Assembly (NCBI GenBank): GCA_963844965.1
Contig: CAWJQC010000004.1
Location: forward strand, 1 to 64,000
Direction of reading: 5' to 3'
Origin: an uncultured bacterium
Lineage (GTDB): Bacteria > Patescibacteriota > Minisyncoccia > UBA6257 > 2-01-FULL-56-20
DNA length: 64,000 nt
Of this stretch, positions 1 to 59,884 are shown piece after piece. Below the pieces are notes generated by a model that saw nothing but the letters and a program-made list of their open reading frames with translations, did not search any database and had not been told where the DNA came from. Every line of letters begins with the position of its first letter. Positions within the stretch are counted from its first letter, which is position 1. The translations under genes were made by a program, and so were the position numbers.

Positions 1-3000
1 TATAGGCGGCGGCAGCAAAAGCTGCCAGTCCGCTCGGCAGTGAATTCGGATTTGTCGTCCACGCGCCGGTGCTGGAGGTGTTGATTTGGGCATAGAGAAC
101 CGTATGGTGCCTCCGTTACCGTTGCCTGTATTTGCGGTGCCGCCGAGATTGTAGATATAGCCATTCCAGACGACAGCCGAGTTGTACTCCAGCGCCGTAG
201 GCAGGAATTGGGATTTTTATACCACGTGCCGGTGCTTGAAGCGTTTATCTGAGCATAAAACACTGGAGGTGTTAACGCCGACTCCATTATCCTCGCCTCC
301 GATTGAATATATGTATCCGTTATAGGCAACGGCAGCCGTGTTATAAATAAGTGAAGCGGGCATATTGTTCGGATTCGTTTTCCACACGCCTATGGTGCCA
401 TTGGAGTTTATCGGAGCATAGTAAACATTATTGGTGTCCCCACCTAACGTATAAATATATCCGTTGTAAACGACGGCGGAGTAATGATTAAGCGCAACGG
501 GCAGCGAATTTGGTCGTCTGCCACGCCTGCACGATTGGCGACGCGTTGATGTGCGACGGAATCGTATTGAAACCGCTCACGGTCGCCGAGGAATCACTCA
601 ACTGCTGTTCCGCTCCGCCGAATGTGAAGGAAGAAGTCGCGTAATGCTGGGAACTCGTTGCCAGGAAATGTCCCAAACCGTCACTGAAGGCGGTACCGGA
701 TATGGCGAGGGTTGTTGAGGAATTGCCGGCGTTGCTCACATAGTGGATTTGGTTCGTGGAGCTGGTGTTCTGGCCGACGAGGAGCGTGCCGTAGGTTGAG
801 GACGCGGGCGAAACGTTAAAGCCCGTGAGGACGACAACGTCCACGTTGGAGGAAGTTGAGTTAGTGACACTGGATGTCGCACCCTCCTTGTCCACCGCCA
901 CGGCGTAAGCCACCCAATCCTGCGTGGGATAACTTGAGGTCGGCGATTGGCTGCCCGTGGAATCGGCGAAGTAGTAAAGTGCAACGGTATCGGTTTCGTT
1001 GTAATTCGTGCCGCTCACACAGGAACCAGTGGAAGAGACGACTCCGAGGTAGCACCAGCGGTTGTCGGTCGTGGGATTGGCTGTTTCACAAGTGGAAGAA
1101 GCGCCGGTGCGGAAAGCGGTGGAAGTAACGTGATAAATGTCCGTGTAGCCGTTCAGGTCCTGCACTGTGTAGTTTATCGTGAAGGTCGTCGTGGCGTTCA
1201 CGGTCAAGTTCAGATTGCTGTTGTTGTTAAGTTTCACAGCGGAGATAGTCGGTGTGTAATTGTGGTAAACATTCAACGCGATGCATGAAGTATATAGTCC
1301 GATGTCCTCTACGGTTGAAGTAGCGTGCCTCCGGTGCTCTTGCCGCCGACCATGTAGAGATAACCGTTCGCGATAGCAACCCTGCTGGTAGAGAGGAAGA
1401 GGCGTTGACGAGGCGGTGAGCCAGCTTGAGAGAGTGCCCGTGCCCTGATACCAGTACGTGCCCGTGGGAGTAGTTAATTGTTGGGCATAAAGAACGGTCG
1501 TGGTCACCCCTCCGTAGGCGGCGGTTGACGAACCGCCGGTAACGTAAATGAAGTTGTTGTAGCCCTCAACGTCCGGCTGGATGATGGGGGCGGGAAGTGC
1601 CGTGGCGGTCGTCCAGGAAGCGACCGAGCCGTCGGAGTTGAGATAGGCCATGTTCACGGTGGTCGTAATCGAGGAAAGCGAAGTGCCGGTGCTGCCTCCT
1701 ATGTTATAGATGACGTTATTGAGGATGGTTCCGTTCTGTTTTGTCATGGCAGCCGGAAGGCCTGGGTTGAGCTCCAGTTGGCTATGGTTCCCGTGGAACT
1801 TATGAGACCGTAGAGAACGGAAGTTGTGGCATTGCTCGTGTCATCGCCGCCTACGACATAGACATAGCCGGTATTAGGGTTAACTCCCGCGAAAGCGTTG
1901 TTGCGGTTTGCGGGAAGCTGGGCGGAGACGCTCGTGCTCCAGGAGCGAGAGTGCCGTTTGAGGCGATGGTTGACTGCGCGACCTGCGTGCTCGCCGCGCT
2001 TACCGTAGTTCCGCCGCCCACGACGTACATTATGGTAGTGCCGCCGGAGTTCGTGTAAGCGAAGGCCTGGTGCTGGACGCTGGCGGAGGGAAGCGCGGTC
2101 GTATTCCCTGAGCCGGTAGTTGTCCCGTTTGAGCCGACCGAGAAGTAACTCACTGTCGTCGTGCCGTTCGTACCGTCCGATGTTCCGCCTATGGAATAAA
2201 GATAGTTGTTGGAGAAGACGGCCTGGTTCAGGGAAATGGAGGTTGAAACCGCTCCCTGGGTCACCCAGCCCTCGGCGGCGGTCATACCCTGCTGGTTTAT
2301 CTGGGAGTAGAAAACTGTGGTCGTGGCGACGCTTATAGTACTCGTTCCTCCGGTCGTGTATATATAACCATTGGAGACAACCGCGGAGAGTTCGTCAAGT
2401 GGGCTCGGAAGAGCGGTGGCGGCGGTGCTCCAGGAGCCGACCGTGCCACTCGCCTGAAGCGGGGCATAGAAAATTGTGGTAGTAGCGCTGGAAATTGTGC
2501 TGCTTCCTCCCACCGTGTAGATGTATCCGTTATAGGCGACCGCGGAGTGCAGCATAAGCGGGCTCGGCAAGGAATTGGAGTTCAAGCTCCATGTTCCCAC
2601 CGTGCCGCTCTGATTTATCTTGGCGAAGAAAACGGAAGTGGTGGGGACGCCGGAAGTGGTCGTGGCTCGCCAGTCGTATAGATGTATCCGTTATAGGCGA
2701 CGGCGGAATGGAACATAAGCGGGCTCGGCAAGGAATTGGAATTCAGTGTCCACGTTCCTACGGTGCCACTGGAGTTTATCTGGGCGTAGAAAACAGAGGT
2801 GGTGGCGGGAGCGCCGGCGGCCGTGTTCGTGGCACCGCCGATCGCATAAAGATAACCGTTATAGGCGACAGCGGAAAGTTCGTTAAGAGGGCTAGACAAG
2901 GAACTGGAATTCAGGGTCCACGTTCCCACGGTGCCGTCCTGATTTATCTTGGCGAAGAAAACGGAAGTGGTGGCAGGAACGTTGGCGGCCGTGGTCGTGG

Positions 3001-6000
3001 CGCCGCCAATCGTATAGATGTATCCGTTATAGGCGACCGCGGAATGGTTGGCGATACCGCTCAGAAGTTTATTGGAGTTCGTAGACCACGCTCCCACCGC
3101 GCCGTTGGAACTTATCTGTGCATAGAAAACGGAGGAAGTAGCCGGAGTTGTGGCGGGAGCGCCGGTGGTTGATGTGGCTCCTCCCGTCGTGTAGATGTAG
3201 CCGTTGTAGACGACGGCGGAATGCCCGTAAAGAGCCGCAGTTGCGGGCAGGGAGGCCGCGTTCGTCGCCCACGTGTTGTCCACGCGCGTGAGGGTGCTTG
3301 AGCCATATAGGCCCGAGTTGTCGGGGTCATAGGCCTGCGCGCCCCACCAGTATGTGCCGGCTGTCAAGGTGTACTGAAAAATGCCGCTTGTTCCCGTCGC
3401 CGAAGTGGCGGAATAGGCCGTGCTGTTACTGGAACCGGAGGAAGCGTTCTGCCCGCTCCAGTTGGTCTGGCTTGAGGGCTCGGTGCTTGAAGTTACAACA
3501 TCCGTACACGCCTCGTTCTGGTAGAGAACCCACTTGTACTGCACGTACTGGTTAGAGGTTGATGTCAAAGTCGCCGTCATTTTGAATGTCGTGGAAGCGG
3601 TGTCAACTGTCGTCGTCGCGGCCACCGGAAAATTCAGTATCGGCCGCCGCGGCTGCGGCAGGGAAAGCGAAAGCGCGGGGTAGACGTTGTAAGAGTCAAA
3701 CGCAACAAAGCTCGCGCTCGTTGCCTCCTGAAGCCGGAAGTAGTAGGTTCCGTTGTTACCGTAGACATCCTGCGGACCAGCGCGGATGGCGTATTCCACT
3801 TCCGTCCAGGTAGAGGTCGGACTGCTGTAGGAAAAACCTATATTGACGAGTCCCGTCGTGCTTGAGGACTGCTTTATTTGGCCGGAAGTGGAAGCATTGG
3901 CGTCCGCGGTAAGCTGGGCGGTCGTGGAAGCGCCATCCGTAAAATTCGTTGAGGAGGCGATAAGGAAAAGTTGGCTGGAAAAAGTGGAGGTTGTGGGGAC
4001 CAGTGTCCAGGAACCGGAAGTCGCGTTGTATTGGTACTGAAGCTGGAGTTTGGGCTGGGTCGTTGTGGCGCGGGTGTTCGTAACCTCAATGCGCAGACGG
4101 TAAACGTTGGCCGTTGAGGTTGCGCTGCCCGTAGCGTTCTCCGCCGCCGTCTGCCAGACGGAGCTGGTTTCCGAGCCGGTATCGTTCCGCCAGCGGTAGC
4201 GCGTCTGCGTAAGATTGGGGGCGGCAGTGTAGGTAATGACGATGATACCCTTTGTGCCGTTGCCGCCGGCATTGGCTCTTCCTCCTCCTCCTCCGGCGGC
4301 GCCGGTAGGCGCCGCCGTTACTACCTGCCACGTTGCTGTTCGCTCCTCCTCCTCCTCCTCCGGCGCCGCCCGTCTCGTTGTTATTGGGAGAGGTTGCCGT
4401 CCAGTCCGTGTGCGTGCCGCCGACGCTTCCCGCCGCTCCTCCGAGCGCGCCGCAACCGCCGTTTCCGCCACGGCTGCTGGGGGTTGAACTCCCGACGCCG
4501 CAGTAGCTGGCAGCGCCTCCGCCCCCGCCGCCGACTGAAGTGGCGTTTGATCCGGCGCCACCGCCGTATAATATACTTCCGATGGAGCTTATTGTCGCTC
4601 CTCCCGCGCCTCCGGCTCTTTTGCTGTCGGTAGTGCTTGCCGCGCCGAATCCTCCCGCAGCGCACATCGAGGCACCGGTGCCTCCGCATGTCGTAGTGCT
4701 TACAGAAGCGCCGAACATCGTAGCGGTGCCGGTAGTCGCTGGCGTGGTGGAAGCGCCCAAGCCAACGTCGCCTACCTTAATACTTACGGAGGAACCGGCG
4801 ACGAGAGAGGTGCTGCCGTTTGCTATTTCAGCGTAGGCGGCGCCGCCTCCTCCTGCGCCGTAGCGGCCGCTACTAGCGCTTGTTGCTTTGGAGGCGCCGC
4901 CGCCGCCGCCGATGCCCTCAATCGTGTTTGAAGCAAGGTTCCAGTCGGCGGGCACTATCCAGCTCGTAACGGCGGTAGAGGTCACAAAAACGACCGTGTT
5001 CGCCGTGCCGGCGTCCGCCGCTATCTGCCACTGCCTCGTTTCTATAGGACTTATAAGACCTATAGGACTTATAGGAGCCGCGGTGAGCGGGCCCAGGAGA
5101 TAGAACTCCGGGCTCACGTTCGGCGCCTGGAATTCGTACCAAAGCGTGTGACTCTCGCCGGCCCGCCAGTTGACCTGCCAGGAAATATTTTGCGTGTCCG
5201 AACCGCAATTCACGAGACAAGTACTGCCGGACACGAGTACCCGTGACCTGCGACAGAAAACCGTTATCCTGCGATGCGTTGCCCGTTCCTTGCGTAGTGC
5301 CATCCATTCCCTGTTCCGCAACCTGGAAACCTTTCGGGACGGTTTCCGTGACCGTTCCGGAGAAATCCGACTGCGCGGCCGCCTTGATCTCCATCCTGTA
5401 GAACGCGGGCGGGTAAATTCTCGTGCGACCGATACGCTCCACGTTCCACAGCGGCGAATCCTCAACCGTGAAGCTGTCGCTCGTCGTTCGTTCGCCGTTC
5501 GCCGTCGTCGCCGTGAGCGTTACATTATAAGTGCCGGTCGCGTCCGGCTTGAAGGTCGCGTAGTAGTCGGGGGCGTTGGTGACGGTGGACGCGCCGCACT
5601 CGGAACTGCGCGTGATGGTGCCGTCTTCGGTGCTCATGACCGCGACGCCTCCGCTTGGCAGACCTGCCTGCGCAGGCAGGCTTATCGTGATATCGGCCTC
5701 GGCGTCGCAAATCGTGTGCCCCATGTCGTCCAAAACCGAAAATCCGATTCCCGCCTCGTCGCCGTCGCTCAAACTGTAAACCGTTTTATTGAAATTCAGA
5801 GCGATGACGCCCCAACTGAAGTCGCTCTGCGAGACATATACAGTGCCGTCCTTGACTATGAAAACCTTCACGGTGTAGCGGCCGGGGCGGAAGGAACTCC
5901 TTTTCGGGAAAGTGAACGTCAAACTGCTTCCGTTTTCCGTTGCCGAAGGCGAAATGTCCGGCATGAAATTCCCGTCCGGGCCGAAAACCTGAATGGCGTA

Positions 6001-6213
6001 GGGCGGAGCGGCACGGGCATGGGACACACCACACGCAACATGTAGCATGCAACATGTAACACCAGATAAAAAGAGGAAGGCAAAAAAGGCAGCAGCAAAA
6101 AATAACAAGAAATATGGGTGATACCGCCGGCTATTTTGAAGTTGAGAGGGAGTCATTTTGCCATATACCGCAAAACCAGCGGGACGAACAACCGCTTGTT
6201 CTAATTTTAACAC
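1..6213 (-). CDS. Giant secreted or cell-surface protein (about 2000 aa if contiguous) with N-terminal signal/TM, Ig/fibronectin-like beta domains, a Gly-rich segment and many Kelch-like beta-propeller repeats (motif AVAYNGYIYTxGG); broken into five or more frames (ORFs 4918..6213, 4086..5465, 2615..4561, 1851..2600, 488..1747, unlisted repeats in 1..487); runs off the left edge
   Basis: Consecutive minus-strand ORFs whose real parts abut; frame switches near 5230, 4330, 2670, 1800, 1350 and 480; repeats YNGYIYTIGG/SAVAYNGY in every piece; at 2670 one repeat unit is 1 nt shorter than its neighbours. Confidence 0.6.
2450..3250 (-). repeat. About 160-bp tandem coding repeats (5 units) encoding Kelch-like blades inside the giant surface-protein gene
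   Basis: Near-identical DNA units ...gtatagatgtatccgttataggcgac... recurring every ~160 bp. Confidence 0.8.
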
Positions 6214-9146: not shown

Positions 9147-9312
9147 TCATCACCCTTATTTTAACATTATTGCCGCAAAAAATTGTCCCCTCCTCTGGGG
9201 ATTAACGAAAACGGCCGGTTAGCGAATTGGTGTATTAACGAATTAACGTATTAACGAATTGTTTTTAATGCGTTAATTCGTTAATCCGTTAATTAACAAT
9301 AATCCGATAAAA

Positions 9313-19418: not shown

Positions 19419-20108
19419 TTATTTATATCTTTTCAGCGCTTCTTTCGCCGCCTCCAACTCCCCTTCCTGTTTTGAGGCGCCGACGCCTTCGGCGATGAAT
19501 TCATCGCCGAAAAAGACGCCGATTCTGAAAATCCGCTTGTGCGCCGGGCCGGACTCGTCCAGAACCTTATATGTCGGCGTCACCTTGAGTTTTTCCTGCA
19601 CAATTTCCTGAAGTTCGCTCTTTGAATCCTTATAGCTCTTCGTTTTCATAATCGTGCCGAGGTTTGTCATCACGAATTTGCCGACGAAATTGCGGACGAC
19701 CTCCGTTCCTTGGTCAAGATAAATCGCGCCGATCACGGCCTCAATGGCGTTCGCGAGAATTACCTCGCGCGCCTTGCCCGTATCTTTTTTCTCGCCCCGA
19801 GAAAGCAAAATGAAATCGTCCAAGTCGATTCCCTCGGCGACTTTTGCCAGCGTCTGGTAATTCACGAGCGCCGCGCGCAAAACTGTCATCTGACCCTCCG
19901 GATAATTTGGGAACCTACTAAAAAGCTCCTCGGAAACTATAAGTTCCAGAACAGCGTCGCCCAAAAACTCCAGCCGCTCGTTGTGCGGCAGGCGCCAGTT
20001 CGGAAATTCGTTCAGATAGGAACGATGCGTCAGCGCCTCCGTTGGTAAATCCTTGTTTTTAAATTGTATTCCGATCTTTTGCTCAAATTTATCTAATTTC
20101 GGCGGCAT
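19419..20108 (-). CDS. rnc: Ribonuclease III
   Basis: ERLEFLGDAVLELIVSEELF RNase III signature plus C-terminal dsRBD. Confidence 0.9.
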   Translation of the reverse strand: MPPKLDKFEQKIGIQFKNKDLPTEALTHRSYLNEFPNWRLPHNERLEFLGDAVLELIVSEELFSRFPNYPEGQMTVLRAALVNYQTLAKVAEGIDLDDFILLSRGEKKDTGKAREVILANAIEAVIGAIYLDQGTEVVRNFVGKFVMTNLGTIMKTKSYKDSKSELQEIVQEKLKVTPTYKVLDESGPAHKRIFRIGVFFGDEFIAEGVGASKQEGELEAAKEALKRYK

Positions 20109-20203
20109 TCACATGCGCAAATTTCTAATTTCTAATATCTAATTTCTAAACCGCGAACGGTATCCGAAATTGGAAATTAGGAATCAGGAATTTACAAGAT
20201 TTT

Positions 20204-30847: not shown

Positions 30848-30984
30848 ACACGAATGAATGGATAAAAAATAAAAAAGACCGCCCTCCCGGCGGCTTTGTT
30901 TTTTTGCTACACGTTACATGTTTCGTGTTACATGCCTACACCGATACACCGAGTTCACACCTCATCGGCGGGCAAGTCCGCCAA

Positions 30985-31284
30985 CTAAACCGATACACCT
31001 AATTTTTGGCGAATGCGCGCGCCGGATTCCTTGCGCACCCAATATAATTTAGCCCGGTGAACTTTTTTCGGTGAACTAACGACTGTAACCTTGTTAATAG
31101 CCGGTGAGTGTATAGGATAAACTTTCTCCACGCCGACGCCCGCGACAATCGCGCGCACCGTAAAGGTCGCGCCGGCCTCCGTTCCGTGCTTGCGCGCGAT
31201 GACCAATCCCCCGAACGGGACTTTACCTTCGTAAACCTTCACCCGCGCGCCGGGCTTTATTTTCTTCAGAAGTCTCCAGGTCAA
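30985..31284 (-). CDS. rplS: 50S ribosomal protein L19
   Basis: 99 aa; FTVRAIVAGVGVEKVYPIHSPAI...RRAKLYWVR. Confidence 0.85.
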   Translation of the reverse strand: MTWRLLKKIKPGARVKVYEGKVPFGGLVIARKHGTEAGATFTVRAIVAGVGVEKVYPIHSPAINKVTVVSSPKKVHRAKLYWVRKESGARIRQKLGVSV

Positions 31285-31369
31285 TCATAGTAAAAGGGTT
31301 TAGCCAATAGGATACAGCCAATGGAACTTTAATTCAAGTAGCTTAACTCTATGCCCTAGACCCTGTTGG

Positions 31370-31762
31370 CTACTTAAGGACGCTCTTGATTTTATTCACC
31401 AACTGATCAATGGAAACTTTTACCTTGACGAAGTATTCCGTCGCGCCGAATTGTTTGGCCTTGAGGACATCGCTTTCCTGCGCCAGGTTACTCAAAACTA
31501 TGACCGGGATCCGATTCATTAACGGATTCATGGAAATCGTCTCCAGCACCTCAAATCCCGACGCCTTCGGCAAGATCAAATCCAAAACAATAAGGTCGGG
31601 CTTCGCCTGTTTTAAAACATTCAACGCATCTGCCCCATCAAAGACCTGAACAACCGCAAAACCGTCTTTCTCAAGACGCGCTTTCAGGAGCGAAGAAAGA
31701 AATCGGTCGTCTTCAATGACGAAAACTGTCTTCTTGGTTGCCATGACATTATTATACCACAA
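31370..31762 (-). CDS. Response regulator, receiver domain only (CheY-like)
   Basis: VFVIEDDRFL...DLIVLDLILP...; conserved D/D/K positions. Confidence 0.8.
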   Translation of the reverse strand: MWYNNVMATKKTVFVIEDDRFLSSLLKARLEKDGFAVVQVFDGADALNVLKQAKPDLIVLDLILPKASGFEVLETISMNPLMNRIPVIVLSNLAQESDVLKAKQFGATEYFVKVKVSIDQLVNKIKSVLK

Positions 31763-32340
31763 TTGCGTGGGCAGTCGTGAATTTTACGCGGAAATGAACT
31801 TCCGCGCCGATCTGCGTTATGTCTGCGCTTGTCTGCGGTTGAACTTCGCCCGATATCTGAAAAAGAGCTTTTTAGTTGTCCCAACCTATCATGAAACACG
31901 CAACCTGAAACATGGAACATTACAAAATGTTTCATGCTTCATGTTTTATACTTCGTGCTTCACGTCGACTAACTATTTGTTAATAGTTTAATTGATCCAC
32001 GGGCAGCTTCCGCTACTCGTGCCTTGTTACGACTTATCCCATGTCACCGAGCTTAAGCTAAATCGCCTGAGGCGATCTTCACCTACTCCCGGCTCCCTTG
32101 GATTGACGGGCAGTGAGTACAGGACTCGAGAACGTATTCACCGCAACATAGCTGATTTGCGATTACTAGCGATTCCAGCTTCATGAGGGCAGGTTGCAGC
32201 CCTCAATCCGAACTGAGACCGGGTTTGATGGGATTAGCTCCGCCTTGCGACTTCGCAACCCATTGTCCCGGCCATTGTAGCACGAGTGTAGCCCAGGGCA
32301 TCAGAGGGCCATGCTGATTTGACGTCATCCCCTCCTTCCT

Positions 32341-32439
32341 CCCCGCTCAGAAACCACGAGACATGAGACACACGTCACGACTCACAAATTTATTGTGCAT
32401 CGTGCTACGTGTATCGTGCATCATGAACTCTGAGCGGGG
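32341..32439 (-). other. 16S intervening sequence 1: about 100-nt hairpin insertion closed by an 11-bp stem (ccccgctcaga/tctgagcgggg) in the helix 39/40 region
   Basis: Sequence between the conserved 1100 and 1190 blocks replaced by a self-complementary insert. Confidence 0.7.
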
Positions 32440-32511
32440 CAGTTTCGCGTGACACTTGTAACACACGATAGGGGTTGCGCTCGTTACCCCACTTAAGGGA
32501 ACACTTCAAAG

Positions 32512-32542
<31 letters not shown>

Positions 32543-32669
32543 ACGTGACGTCCTTGAGAGAGGGCCCGCCTTTCGGCAAGCTTTCGTCACGAATTTCAAG
32601 CCCTGGTAAGGTTCCTCGCTTACTGTCGAATTAAACCTCATGCTCCACCGCTTGTGCGAGTCCCCGTCT

Positions 32670-32701
<32 letters not shown>

Positions 32702-33161
32702 TCCCAGGCGGCCGACTTAACGCGTTAGCTCCGCCACTCCGAGGGTCGATACTCGAAACAGCAAGTCGGCATCGTTTAGGGCGTGGACTACAAGGGTATC
32801 TAATCCTTTTTGCTCCCCACGCTTTCGCGTCTCAGAGTCAGGAAGGTCCCAGTGCCATGCCTTCGCCTTTGGTGTTCCGCACGATATCAACGGATTTCAC
32901 CCCTACACCGTGCGTTCCAGGCACCTCTAACCTCCTCTAGTTTCGCCGTATCTCCTGCACTTCCACCGTTAGGCGGTGGGATTTAACAGAAGACGCACGA
33001 AACCTCCTACACGCTCTTTACGCCCAATAAATCCGGATAACGCTCGAGGTCTACGTATTACCGCGGGTGCTGGCACGTAGTTACCAACCTCTTTCCGTAT
33101 GGTACGGTCACCCAGCACTTTTGGAACGAACTTTTCTAATTTGCTCAAATTTTTGGAGGTA

Positions 33162-33190
33162 TTGACAACAGCAATCACTTCTGCTATAAT
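33162..33190 (+). promoter_or_regulatory. Perfect consensus sigma70 promoter (TTGACA-17-TATAAT) inside IVS-2, oriented antisense to the rRNA
   Basis: ttgacaacagcaatcacttctgctataat. Confidence 0.6.
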
Positions 33191-33269
33191 GCCCATAGCA
33201 CATTGGGAGACCAACGTGCCGCACGTCGGGCCTCAGCCCTTGTGCAATTCCCAAAAGGAGAATTGATTT

Positions 33270-33461
33270 ATGCGTGCCAAATTCCCGTCACAAGTCACGG
33301 ATCGAATACTGGAAGCAGCCAAGAAAGAGTACTCCTTCCAGATCAATCATGCGGAATTAGGGCGGCGGCTGTTTACGCGCAAGCACTGTGGCACGAGAAT
33401 GGTTCAGGTAAAAGTCTTTCTGCAAGGAAGACAACAACCTGCCATACTCGGAAAACAATAA
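33270..33461 (+). CDS. 63-aa ORF inside 16S IVS-2, antisense to the rRNA (MRAKFPSQVTDRILEAAKKEYSFQINHAELGRRLFTRKHCGTRMVQVKVFLQGRQQPAILGKQ); has its own promoter, SD and terminator
   Basis: SD aaaaggagaa 6 nt before ATG; intrinsic terminator ctgccaccagaagctttccggtggcag plus TTTTTT at 33543-33575. Confidence 0.45.
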   Translation: MRAKFPSQVTDRILEAAKKEYSFQINHAELGRRLFTRKHCGTRMVQVKVFLQGRQQPAILGKQ

Positions 33462-33542
33462 CCACAGATGCACGGACGCCGCAGTATGCCCCGTTTGTTT
33501 GCTGGCATATGTCATGACTAACGACTAGCTGCCACCTTTCTA

Positions 33543-33575
33543 CTGCCACCAGAAGCTTTCCGGTGGCAGTTTTTT
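33543..33575 (+). terminator. Rho-independent terminator of the IVS-2 mini-gene
   Basis: 11-bp GC-rich stem followed by a T6 run. Confidence 0.6.
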
Positions 33576-34434
33576 AAATCCAAAAATTTGAGCAAATTAG
33601 TTTTCCCGCCAAAAGTGCTGGGTTCTTCCCATACTACCGCAGTTTACAACCCGAAGGCCTTCTTCCTGCACGCGGCGTCGCTCGATCAGGCTTTCGCCCA
33701 TTGTCGAATATTCTCGGCTACTGCCACCCGTAGGTGTACGAACCGTTTCTCAGTTTCGTCGTTGGGGGTCAGGCTCTCACCTCCCCTACCGGTCATAGCC
33801 TTGGTAGGCCGTTACCCTGCCAACTAGCTGATCGGACCTAGGCCGCTCTTGGAGCGTCTTGCGACTTTGGATGCGAATGGCTTTCGCCCCCGCATCATCA
33901 TCAGGAATTACCCCGCCTTTCGGCGAGCTGTGCCCGTCTCCAAGGTACGTTACCAAGGTGTTACTAACTCGTTCGCCGCTCACTATTTTCCTTGCGGAAA
34001 ATAGTTCGCTCAACTTGCATGCCTTATCCACGCCGCCAGCGTTCATCCTGGACCAGGATCAAATCCTCAGTAAAAATCGCGCATTTATTCAATACGCGAG
34101 ATTGTGCGCCATGCATGACGCCCAAACTCGCGCATCTCACTCGTGCGTGAGTTCATACCGCGATTGATTTATTGATCTCGGTTTATTTCAATTCCAAACC
34201 GAAAAATGAATCTTATTGGGACAACTAAAAAACTCTTTTTTATTTACTTTTCTCATATTAATTTTTCAATCTGCAGTCGGCGCAGTCCTTTACCCCGCAC
34301 ATTACCTTCGGTAATAACGGGGCGAGCAACAAAACATCCCCCCTACACATTCTAAACCTCAGAAGAATGTGTAGGGCGGATGTCTTTAGACACACCATAA
34401 TATTGAGATATCAAACCTATCCGTTTTCCATATT

Positions 34435-39514: not shown

Positions 39515-39666
39515 TGTTTTAACTGTTTAATAATTTTACGGATACGACCTTTTTAGTAAGATACCAATATACAAATGCATGCAAATGATACAAATAATAC
39601 GAATTAATTATTAGTATCCATTCGTATCATTAGTACCATTTGTATATTTGTATCATAGTTTCAAAT

Positions 39667-43096: not shown

Positions 43097-43604
43097 TTTT
43101 GTTGCTGGCAATCCGTAAGCCGGATTCTGTCGCGCCTGCCTGTCGGCAGACGATGCGATCATTTATCTGGGCCCTTGATTGCTCGCGGGCTCAAGCGGCA
43201 CTTCCACCTCATCGGCGGACACGGCCTTGCACCCAGTAAGGATTTAGCCGTTTCATCTCCACTTTTTTATCCCTATGGCGGAGCTGGACCGACTAGCTTG
43301 GGATTGGGTCCGTCCGACTTTTTCAAATCGGACCGTTTCTGCTCGCACCTCTATTCTTACGAACGACGGCTGTTAGCCGCTACTATTTTATCCCTCCCCA
43401 GTTTTGCCAGTAATGTCACTGGCAAAACTGGGGAGGGATGGTGTCCGGACTTTCCTCCCTACATTTTCTAGAATTTTAAGAAAATGTAGGGCGATCGCCT
43501 AGATTGCCAGCTAACTACAGTGTAACATTCTATCAAAAAAAATCAAGTCCGGAAGCAGTGTTCGCGACTAGCCGGTGATATTTTAATTCACGGCGGACAT
43601 ACCT

Positions 43605-56117: not shown

Positions 56118-56206
56118 TTTTAGAAAATAGTAAGTAGAAATTAGAAAATAGAATTTTGTCGGGATTTTCGGCGAAGTTCCGATTTCTATTTTCTATTTAC
56201 TATTTT
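56118..56206. terminator. AT-rich long inverted repeat (tagaaaatagtaagtagaaattagaaaatagaattt / tttctattttctatttactattttctactttcta) between convergent dnaE and the nucleotidyltransferase gene; likely bidirectional terminator
   Basis: Member of a TAGAAA(A)TAGAA family also at 20110-20190, 49500-49560 and 59750-59840. Confidence 0.5.
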
Positions 56207-56614
56207 CTACTTTCTATCTACGATATTGCTTTTATATCTATGCGGCTCGTGCGCCCTCAAAACAACCATCTTCGGCCGCCAACGAAATTCCTTGCGGTGA
56301 TTTTTCAGGTCCTCTTTGAGCGCCACCTGGTCGTAACCCAAAGCGATAACGTCGGGCTTGTGCTTTTTCACGACCTCGTAAACGCCGAGTTCAGCGTCGC
56401 CGAGCGCGACCTCGTCAACAAGAGGTTCTTTTCGCAGGTCGTCAATTCTCCGCGCGAGATTTCTCTGCGGCAGACGGCCCTTCAAGTACTCAGCCGTATG
56501 GTCCTGCGCGACTGCGACGAGCAAATAATGGCCGTATTCCCTGGCTTGTTTAAAAAATTGACGGTGACCTTCATGGATGCCGTCAAAAACGCCGAAGACC
56601 AGAACTTTTTTCAT
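56207..56614 (-). CDS. Cytidylyltransferase-family nucleotidyltransferase (HxGH; RibL/TagD-like)
   Basis: VLVFGVFDGIHEGH motif; 135 aa. Confidence 0.65.
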   Translation of the reverse strand: MKKVLVFGVFDGIHEGHRQFFKQAREYGHYLLVAVAQDHTAEYLKGRLPQRNLARRIDDLRKEPLVDEVALGDAELGVYEVVKKHKPDVIALGYDQVALKEDLKNHRKEFRWRPKMVVLRAHEPHRYKSNIVDRK

Positions 56615-56676
56615 GTATCACGCAACATGAAACATGTAGCAGTTAAAACGGTGCTACATGTTTCGTGTTATATGTT

Positions 56677-58823: not shown

Positions 58824-58885
58824 GATAGAAAATTAAAAAATTTAAAAATCAAAATGCAAAATTTGGGTGTCCTACGGACCAGATT

Positions 58886-59749
58886 TTATAATTTGTCAAT
58901 TTTAAATTTTTCATTGTTATTTTGAACTTTGATTTTTACATTTTCAACTTGATACTTGCCGGTCCACAGCCACCAACGAATTTTACACGTTTCCCATAAA
59001 GTTTTCAAGTAGGCGGAAGCCGGAAGCCTTGAGCGGGCATCGTTCACCCAATGAACCGGAATTTCCTTAATTTTGTAGCCGAATTTCTTGGCCAATGCCA
59101 GGATCTCCACGTCAAATCCCCAACCGCTGATTTTTGATAAATTGAAAATTTTTTCCGCTGCCTCATCCGTAAACGCCTTGAAGCCACACTGCGTGTCCCA
59201 AATCTTCGGCAACAGCAGTGCTTGAATGATCAAATTCCCGACCTTTCCCGGGATCTGGCGGTAGAAGGGCTGCGGCGGGTCAAGTTTGCTTCCTTTGAGC
59301 ACGCGGTCACAGATCACGACATCATATCTCTCGCGCGCCGCCACGGTCGGCGCAGAAAGCGTTCCCAGTTTCATATCATCCGAATCCGACTCAACTGGTA
59401 CGCCTCCCGGAGCAAAATACGGCATCATGGCATTGAAGTGATCTATGGACGTAGAATTGTCGGCATCGGTGAAGAGCCGAATCTTCCCCCTTGCGAGAAG
59501 CATTCCCTGCCGGACAACTCCGCCCTTGCCCTTGTTCTCGGAATTATCTATCAGCTTGAGGTTTTTGATAAGCTTCGCCATATTGCTGACGATTTGGGCG
59601 GTGTTGTCCTTTGAGCCGTCGTTCACGACCAAAATTTCGTAGGAATATTCCGCGTCTGCCAGGCGCTTGTCAATATCAACGAGCGTCAAGGGCAGCCGCT
59701 CGGCCTCGTTGTAGGCGGGAATGATGATAGAAAGATAGGGCTGGGCCAT
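58886..59749 (-). CDS. Family 2 glycosyltransferase (polyprenyl-phosphate sugar synthase-like)
   Basis: LSIIIPAYNEAERL...VVNDGSKDNT... Confidence 0.85.
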   Translation of the reverse strand: MAQPYLSIIIPAYNEAERLPLTLVDIDKRLADAEYSYEILVVNDGSKDNTAQIVSNMAKLIKNLKLIDNSENKGKGGVVRQGMLLARGKIRLFTDADNSTSIDHFNAMMPYFAPGGVPVESDSDDMKLGTLSAPTVAARERYDVVICDRVLKGSKLDPPQPFYRQIPGKVGNLIIQALLLPKIWDTQCGFKAFTDEAAEKIFNLSKISGWGFDVEILALAKKFGYKIKEIPVHWVNDARSRLPASAYLKTLWETCKIRWWLWTGKYQVENVKIKVQNNNEKFKIDKL

Positions 59750-59884
59750 TGAAATAGAAAATAGAATTTAGAAAGTAGAAAGTAGTAGGTAGTAGGAAGA
59801 AAAAACTGAAAATTTCTAAATTCTAATTTCTGATTTCTAAACAATTAAAATTATAACACAAAAGAAACAGCTGAAATTCCACGC

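Follow-up and report, generated by a model that had tools for sequence, protein, structure and literature searches.

The CPR makes up a very large and uncultured section of the bacterial tree. Insertions in its rRNA genes are a hallmark of the group and cause 16S surveys to overlook these organisms. Those insertions that are introns with homing endonucleases are characterised, while the short ones that lack an open reading frame (ORF) have been left 'uncharacterized'.

CPR rRNA insertions were reported to be missing from transcripts for the most part (Brown 2015, cited in PMC9297842), and short, ORF-less, non-intron insertions are suggested in the text of PMC11270868 to be intervening sequences (IVSs) cut by RNase III; the 2024 survey reported there counted inserts from a length of 100 bp upward, relative to E. 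coli. According to the passages on IVSs in PMC5041132 and PMC11270868, RNase III-excised IVSs occur in 23S helices 9, 25 and 45 of Salmonella, Leptospira, Campylobacter and others, with rare 16S examples in Helicobacter canis and Campylobacter helveticus. Heptanucleotide repeats form a separate line of work: polymerase slippage has been proposed as the cause of their excess in repeat-rich bacterial genomes (Mrazek 2007, as summarised in PMC4679880), and the TAACTGA repeats of Beggiatoaceae and cyanobacteria are presented in the text of PMC4679880 as an example of a long heptanucleotide SSR.

The insert described here lies in helix 40 (h40) of the 16S rRNA gene of an uncultured Patescibacteria (CPR) bacterium and resembles bacterial rRNA IVSs in several respects: it is an ORF-less hairpin of about 100 nt that takes the place of the apical loop in a surface helix, its presence is sporadic, its sequence varies among close relatives and its host has RNase III. 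It differs from them in its site, 16S h40, and in the regular mirrored heptamers of its arms; we know of no described IVS with mirrored heptamer arms. With the CPR rRNA insertions (Brown et al. 2015; Tsurumaki et al. 2022, 2024; PMC9297842, PMC11270868) it shares the host group, Parcubacteria-group Patescibacteria, and the occurrence of several inserts per 16S, and it falls into the class 'short, no intron model, no ORF, uncharacterized'; at about 84–89 nt it would be missed by the 2024 survey because of the cut-off applied there. The dominance of period 7, the mostly intergenic arrays and the proposal of polymerase slippage recall the heptanucleotide SSRs as outlined in the text of PMC4679880, whereas here the unit is a different one at each locus, the units stand in inverted pairs that form hairpins with one mismatch per unit, and arrays also lie inside rRNA helices. 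As in rRNA expansion segments (eukaryotic ES, bacterial helix extensions), the addition sits at a helix tip, its base covaries, and its length is lineage-specific and varies continuously; its sequence, however, turns over far faster among close relatives than that of typical expansion segments.

CPR insertions and the anatomy of IVSs are already known; previously undescribed are the h40 hot spot and a repeat-built architecture that ties rRNA inserts to intergenic hairpins. A full-text literature search returned nothing relevant on h40 as a 16S insertion site, and no description of mirrored heptamer hairpin arms inside rRNA helices was found in the literature. Neither an h40 hot spot nor repeat-built hairpins are mentioned in the text of PMC9297842 or PMC11270868, in which the site maps are given as figures.

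Results

Position of the insert in the 16S rRNA gene

The RF00177 match in the window (the whole 64-kb stretch of DNA that was analysed) places the 16S rRNA gene on the minus strand (Table 1), with the full model matched and every conserved block and the flanking processing stems intact. A response regulator gene and rplS follow the 16S gene (30985–34240), an order kept in the related loci L072, L076, L079 and L080, and a 23S gene following the 16S was found nowhere in the 64-kb window.

The letters at 32341–32439 read CCCCGCTCAGA...TCTGAGCGGGG (99 nt), so that the coordinates and stem letters given for the insert in the preliminary description were correct on re-reading of the sequence. In the structure-aware cmscan alignment of the 3' part of the gene (CUGCCCCG-CU*[87]*-CGGGGAGG), the two strands of h40 are split by CU plus 87 nt, and the loop positions 1157–1161 of the model (5 nt) are replaced by the insert; 89 bases thus fall outside the normal helix, in the loop of h40, with a net gain of about 84 nt once the native loop is subtracted. 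As in IVSs, the apical loop of a conserved rRNA helix is replaced by extra sequence. The closing stem of 11 bp had been reported as perfect, which it is in sequence, although its outer five pairs (CCCCG/CGGGG) are native h40. Likewise, the insert had been placed at the tip of helices 39 and 40; covariance-model alignment and the relatives confine it to the apical loop of h40 and leave h39 uninvolved. Every relative has the short h39 (GUUACAAGUGUC-type), a lineage trait separate from the insert.

The 3' end of the 16S gene (31985–32000) reads GGAUCAAUUAAACU and lacks the CCUCC anti-Shine-Dalgarno, which was also not found in the spacer downstream of the gene. Loss of the anti-Shine-Dalgarno in about half of Parcubacteria has already been reported (PMC9297842).

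Table 1. Coordinates of the features discussed, in positions of the 64-kb window.
Feature	Coordinates	Strand	Evidence or remarks
16S rRNA gene	31985..34074	(-)	RF00177, 1347 bits, full length; 2,090 nt vs 1,533-position model
Reported element: h40 distal stem and insert, 99 nt	32341..32439	(-)	Imperfect hairpin, 47-nt arms, 5-nt loop
Extra DNA proper, 89 nt, in place of the ~5-nt h40 apical loop	32346..32434	(-)	cmscan alignment
Basal stem, 5' strand, 12 nt, CCCCGCUCAGAG	32428..32439	(-)	First 5 nt native h40
5' arm, five tandem heptamers UUCAUGA UGCACGA UACACGU AGCACGA UGCACAA	32393..32427	(-)	Lag-7 self-identity 0.65–0.67, z 5.0–5.5
Apical loop UAAAU	32388..32392	(-)	Predicted fold, inverted repeat
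3' arm, five mirrored heptamers UUGUGAG UCGUGAC GUGUGUC UCAUGUC UCGUGGU	32353..32387	(-)	Lag-7 self-identity 0.59–0.61, z 4.0–4.1
Basal stem, 3' strand, 12 nt, UUCUGAGCGGGG	32341..32352	(-)	Last 5 nt native h40
Pre-16S processing stem, 5' half	34216..34240	(-)	I2
Pre-16S processing stem, 3' half of 25 bp	31860..31884	(-)	Pairs with 34216–34240; I2, 96% complementary
h17 insert, ~510 nt	33111..33622	(-)	Perfect 22-nt and 15-nt closing inverted repeats (I3, I8)
rnc, RNase III, catalytic domain and dsRBD	19419..20108	(-)	PF14622 4e-39, PF00636 4e-27, PF00035 1e-14
Intergenic hairpins of mirrored 7–9-nt tandem repeats	9234–9294, 20119–20194, 31891–31962, 39560–39656, 56121–56217, 58829–58913, 59752–59841		Window spacers
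Copies of CACGCAACATGNANCATG	6032–6049, 30910–30927, 31897–31914, 56619–56636	(+), (-), (+), (+)	

Fold and heptamer build

The 99-nt segment was predicted to form one hairpin that continues h40, with 41 pairs, a free energy of -61.9 kcal/mol and z = -9.7, and none of 200 shuffled controls folded as well. Its arms (32341–32387 and 32393–32439) are the best inverted repeat of the region (I1). On the strength of the z-score, the shuffles, the rank of the inverted repeat and a homologue in L072 (see below), the hairpin is not a product of chance. RNase III-type IVSs have stems of about 20 bp or more; the 41 predicted pairs lie above this length, and the longest uninterrupted run is 12 bp.

In RNA sense the hairpin is laid out as 12 + 5x7 + 5 + 5x7 + 12 nt. 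Each heptamer is paired with its mirror heptamer at 5–6 of 7 positions, the mismatch falling at the unit boundary, and the tandem 7-nt period is above chance in both arms (lag-7 identity 0.59–0.67, z 4.0–5.5). The insert was not called by TRF at score 30; the heptamer units are only ~65% alike.

Tests of identity

No intron family matched in a covariance scan of the whole window or in a permissive scan of the insert, and with this result and a length of 89 nt, which is too short, a group I or group II intron was ruled out. No other Rfam family matches the h40 insert. Coding capacity, including that for a homing endonuclease, was limited to spurious ORFs of at most 45 aa that cross the insert. 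The preliminary description of a hairpin-type insert in the 16S gene was therefore borne out, as the element is a single hairpin without an ORF or an intron match at the tip of a conserved helix.

A blastn-short search for a second copy found none in the window, which covers 64 kb of the 216-kb source contig, or in 80 loci other than the orthologous site of L072, and a dispersed palindromic element of the MITE, REP or RPE kind, which would be multi-copy, was rejected within this scope. A link through CAYG chains between the insert and nearby CAYG-rich spacers was also discarded, since the four chains observed are matched by shuffles, which reach four. A heptamer-phased dispersed motif of 18 nt, CACGCAACATGNANCATG, does occur in the window in 4 copies against 0.04 expected, two of which bracket the response-regulator/L19 gene pair in inverted orientation; the h40 insert does not match it.

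Helix 40 across relatives

Relatives were collected with a gap-free pattern on the 1190–1230 block, which gave 70 genome loci, almost all from Parcubacteria-group Patescibacteria (Paceibacterota, Lipton-, Harrison-, Jorgensen-, Moran- and Azambacteria), and further loci came from a metagenome scan and from the response-regulator gene that follows the 16S. Among the 67 loci with a readable h40, the helix is minimal in 32 (17–18 nt, an 8-bp stem with a 5–6-nt loop) and extended in 35 (35–166 nt), with extension lengths that form a continuous series beginning at +17 nt. Every extension folds as a coaxial continuation of h40. Since about half of the loci are extended and all extensions continue the same helix, h40 is a recurrent, length-hypervariable insertion site in the Parcubacteria-group lineage. 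Coaxial extension is strongly supported by covariation, as the first 12 positions past the h40 base are 79–100% canonical in 33 distinct inserts, and a single position has as many as six pair types. The coaxial extension of a helix, the covarying base and the lineage-specific length are features of expansion segments, and the sporadic presence (32 minimal against 35 extended, the closest relatives having unrelated inserts) is a feature of IVSs.

The heptamer build is not confined to the window. In 8 of 20 distinct long h40 inserts, lag 7 or 8 scores best in each of the two arms (z ≥ 3), and the same period is present in the unrelated inserts of L018, L030, L040, L053 and L076, and in that of L072, at lag 7, and in L060 at lag 8.

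Larger h40 inserts of a CCCAGCC type, with a common basal stem, were seen in L003, L008/L073, L012, L018, L038, L040, L053 and L060. Conserved blocks near both of their ends, for example GCGCGCGAAGCGCGC and GCUCGC-UUCG-GCGAGC, flank a variable heptamer hairpin, and these end blocks could form local hairpins in a three- or four-way junction or be part of a single long stem.

The homologous insert in L072

An insert homologous to that of the window was found in one locus only, L072 (JGI Ga0265292_1001338), at the same site, with the same length and ~87% identity, so that the window-type insert is known from two sequences. L072 is syntenic with the window over the 16S, response regulator and L19 genes. 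Between the two hairpins there are two compensatory and three wobble-preserving changes in 41 pairs, and 4 of 82 cells are unpaired; 95% of cells are paired in the two sequences together, against 26–55% when the partner strand is slid. The metagenome scan for further carriers returned L072 only, synteny with the response regulator led to close relatives with different inserts, and a bait made from the spurious antisense ORF that crosses the insert found none.

Identity between the window and L072 is ~87% for the insert, about the level of the mature 16S, against only 30–58% for the spacers. However, the 25-bp processing stem, a discarded part of the pre-16S, is also 94–100% conserved in L072, which makes conservation an indecisive test of retention.

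The distribution of the insert conflicts with relatedness, a conflict that is based on two linked proteins and partial 16S comparisons. Amino-acid identity to the window is 75–83% for the response regulator and 84–90% for L19 in L076, L077, L079 and L080, against 57% and 67% in L072, and L076 is as close to the window as L072, or closer, in nearly every 16S segment. Nevertheless, the h40 inserts of the closer relatives L076 and L079 are unrelated to that of the window, and across the four loci an insert was either unrelated or h40 could not be read. No recombination tract flanking h40 was seen when the 16S segments were compared with L072 and L076. Because insert types conflict with relatedness in this way, the rRNA inserts appear to have been gained, lost or replaced independently in this lineage.

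Period-7 hairpins outside the 16S gene

Seven window spacers hold hairpins of the same construction (Table 1), the unit being different at each locus and the predicted stems having one mismatch per unit. A count of period-7 arrays gave 8 in the window and 31 in 465 kb of CPR loci, whereas 50 kb of E. coli and the shuffled sequences had none, and periods other than 7 are rare among the arrays of the window and the CPR loci. A mirrored partner (at least 70%) accompanies 19 of 73 period-7/8 arrays compared with 1 of 397 random controls, and 26 of the 73 lie inside 16S gene spans. What the rRNA inserts and the spacer hairpins have in common is an architecture rather than a mobile sequence, as the unit differs from locus to locus and the insert is single-copy.

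Two further repeat structures were recorded. The 16S gene of L076 has period-7 mirrored arrays also at 1584–1655. In the window, a 168-nt tandem repeat at 2514–3133 (3.2–3.7 copies, 73–80% matches) lies within the ORF 2615–4561 on the minus strand, which probably encodes a repeat-domain protein.

RNase III and its leader

As in the hosts of IVSs, RNase III is encoded by the organism itself, by an rnc gene in the window directly downstream of nusB. The rnc leader, that is the nusB-rnc spacer, contains one of the mirrored-heptamer hairpins (20119–20194; 7+6+5+2+6 bp with 1x1 mismatches, z -4.1). In E. coli, RNase III autoregulates its synthesis by cutting a hairpin in the rnc leader position. 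The leader hairpin of the window hints at a similar autoregulation, and it could also be there by coincidence, with ~7 such hairpins among roughly 60 spacers.

Among the other RNA genes, a class A RNase P RNA (43101–43510, minus strand) scored 100.2 against an Rfam gathering score of 100; P3 and the P12 region contain large inserts, and several elements are deleted.

The companion insert in h17

A companion insert of ~510 nt lies in h17 of this 16S gene. Antisense to the 16S it contains a sigma-70 promoter (TTGACA-17-TATAAT, 12/12 matches, 33162–33190, perfect extended), followed on the plus strand by AAGGAG-N8-ATG with a 63-codon ORF (33271–33462) and a stem-loop with a T-run (33542–33580). 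Since it appears to hold an antisense promoter-ORF-terminator cassette (33162–33580), the h17 insert is not a simple hairpin IVS. No intron model or other Rfam family matches the insert, which rules out an intron, and the 63-codon ORF had no Pfam match and matched only itself in the database. An AAGGAG ahead of this ORF is odd, given a 16S 3' end without the anti-Shine-Dalgarno.

The h17 insert is absent from L072 (2765–2786), which has the window-type h40 insert, and its two ends are common to L076 (168–467), whose h40 insert differs; the h17 and h40 inserts therefore assort independently. The 16S gene of L076 has two more inserts that are absent from the window, one of ~1.1 kb at 845–1941 (window sense position ~1275) and one of ~115 nt near the 3' end (2677–2793).

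Discussion

The element at 32341–32439 belongs to the helix-tip insertions that are common in CPR rRNA genes, and it prolongs h40 to an imperfect hairpin of ~41 bp. The explanation that we tentatively prefer, at somewhat short of an even chance, combines growth of the insert in place with its excision by RNase III. In such growth, a unit pair of about TGCACGA / TCGTGNC (5–6 bp and one mismatch) would have been multiplied in place to five copies per arm. Arms built of tandem repeats would remain paired when shifted by one unit, which would allow replication slippage on one arm, and hairpin-templated correction of the other arm would then copy the unit pair together with its mismatch. The proposed slippage and correction would account both for the single mismatch in every unit and for the symmetry of five units on each arm, and the same process may have given rise to the spacer hairpins of mirrored heptamers in these genomes. 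The heptamer build shared by 8 of 20 long inserts and many intergenic hairpins suggests growth by slippage. Against this, unit number does not differ between the inserts of the window and L072, nor was copy-number variation found at the neighbouring spacer hairpin in two assemblies of the same organism. The conflict between insert type and protein phylogeny likewise counts against growth in place and could mean lateral exchange.

As regards the fate of the RNA, the long duplex in the pre-rRNA would be a substrate for the organism's own RNase III, and the insert would be excised without re-ligation, the flanking 16S pieces being held together by the remaining base of h40 and by the ribosome. 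Were the h17 insert likewise cut out and the ends left unjoined, three pieces of about 450, 670 and 355 nt would make up the mature 16S. Excision and a fragmented 16S, which the preliminary description had predicted, are plausible because RNase III is encoded in the window, and we consider the chance of excision to be even or marginally better. Counting against it, the shortest h40 extensions are too short to be RNase III substrates, the longest perfect duplex in the insert is 12 bp, and an insert identity of ~87% also fits a retained functional segment. The mismatches at every ~7 bp may in addition be anti-determinants for RNase III.

These points lead to the principal alternative, a sizeable though minority possibility in our estimation, in which the insert is a retained expansion segment: a long extension of h40 would protrude from the head of the 30S subunit, the 16S would be continuous at this point, and the mismatches would shield the stem, in which perfect duplex never exceeds 12 bp, from RNase III. 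Extended h40s of continuously graded length in 35 of 67 relatives, some of them far too short for processing, agree with retention, and because the shortest (+17 nt) must be retained, the mature ribosome tolerates additional RNA at h40. Covariation in the basal 12 bp resembles that of a genuine rRNA helix, and from the window to L072 the insert has diverged about as much as mature rRNA, while the spacers are scrambled; the weight of this last point is lessened by the equal conservation of the discarded processing stem, so that conservation is no proof. The conserved putative local hairpins with UUCG loops that larger inserts of relatives keep suggest a structured domain, whereas the wholesale replacement of inserts among close relatives argues against a sequence-specific role in the ribosome. 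An exposed duplex of ~41 bp would furthermore be a natural substrate in a cell that encodes RNase III, and the reported absence of most CPR rRNA insertions from transcripts (Brown 2015, cited through the text of PMC9297842) speaks for removal. Overall, the sequence evidence can be explained by a retained expansion segment almost as well as by an excised IVS.

An unlikely origin is lateral acquisition of a palindromic element, in which the hairpin or a short 16S tract would have moved in the manner of a MITE or RPE or by gene conversion, the fate of the RNA being as under excision or retention. Such movement would explain why the only homologous insert is that of L072, whose linked proteins are distant (57% and 67%), when L076, L077, L079 and L080 are closer and have unrelated inserts or an unreadable h40, and classical IVSs are thought to spread horizontally, according to the text of PMC11270868. 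Nevertheless, a second copy is absent from 64 kb and 80 loci, there are neither terminal repeats nor target duplications beyond the helix itself, and no recombination tract flanks the insert, L076 being at least as close as L072 in nearly every 16S segment. That each lineage has a repeat unit of its own is easier to reconcile with local turnover than with a mobile sequence common to them. Finally, metagenome assemblies can produce chimeric or palindromic errors in rRNA regions, but an assembly artefact or a 16S pseudogene is highly improbable, given the same insert at the same site with compensatory changes in the independent JGI assembly of L072, the fully matched 16S model with intact conserved blocks and processing stems, and inserts at h40 in half of the related genomes.

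Returning to growth in place followed by excision, a wider and rather doubtful extension is that mirrored-heptamer hairpins are a self-expanding class of structure in Parcubacteria, active in spacers and at rRNA helix tips alike, with CPR IVSs that would be endogenous, arising recurrently from the loops of helices rather than by horizontal transfer, turning over fast and acting as handles for RNase III. The regular mirrored 7-nt build points to an endogenous, slippage-driven origin of IVS-like inserts, and the origin of such inserts is a question as old as the discovery of IVSs. Should the inserts instead be retained, those of h40 would be among the longest expansion segments of the bacterial small subunit.
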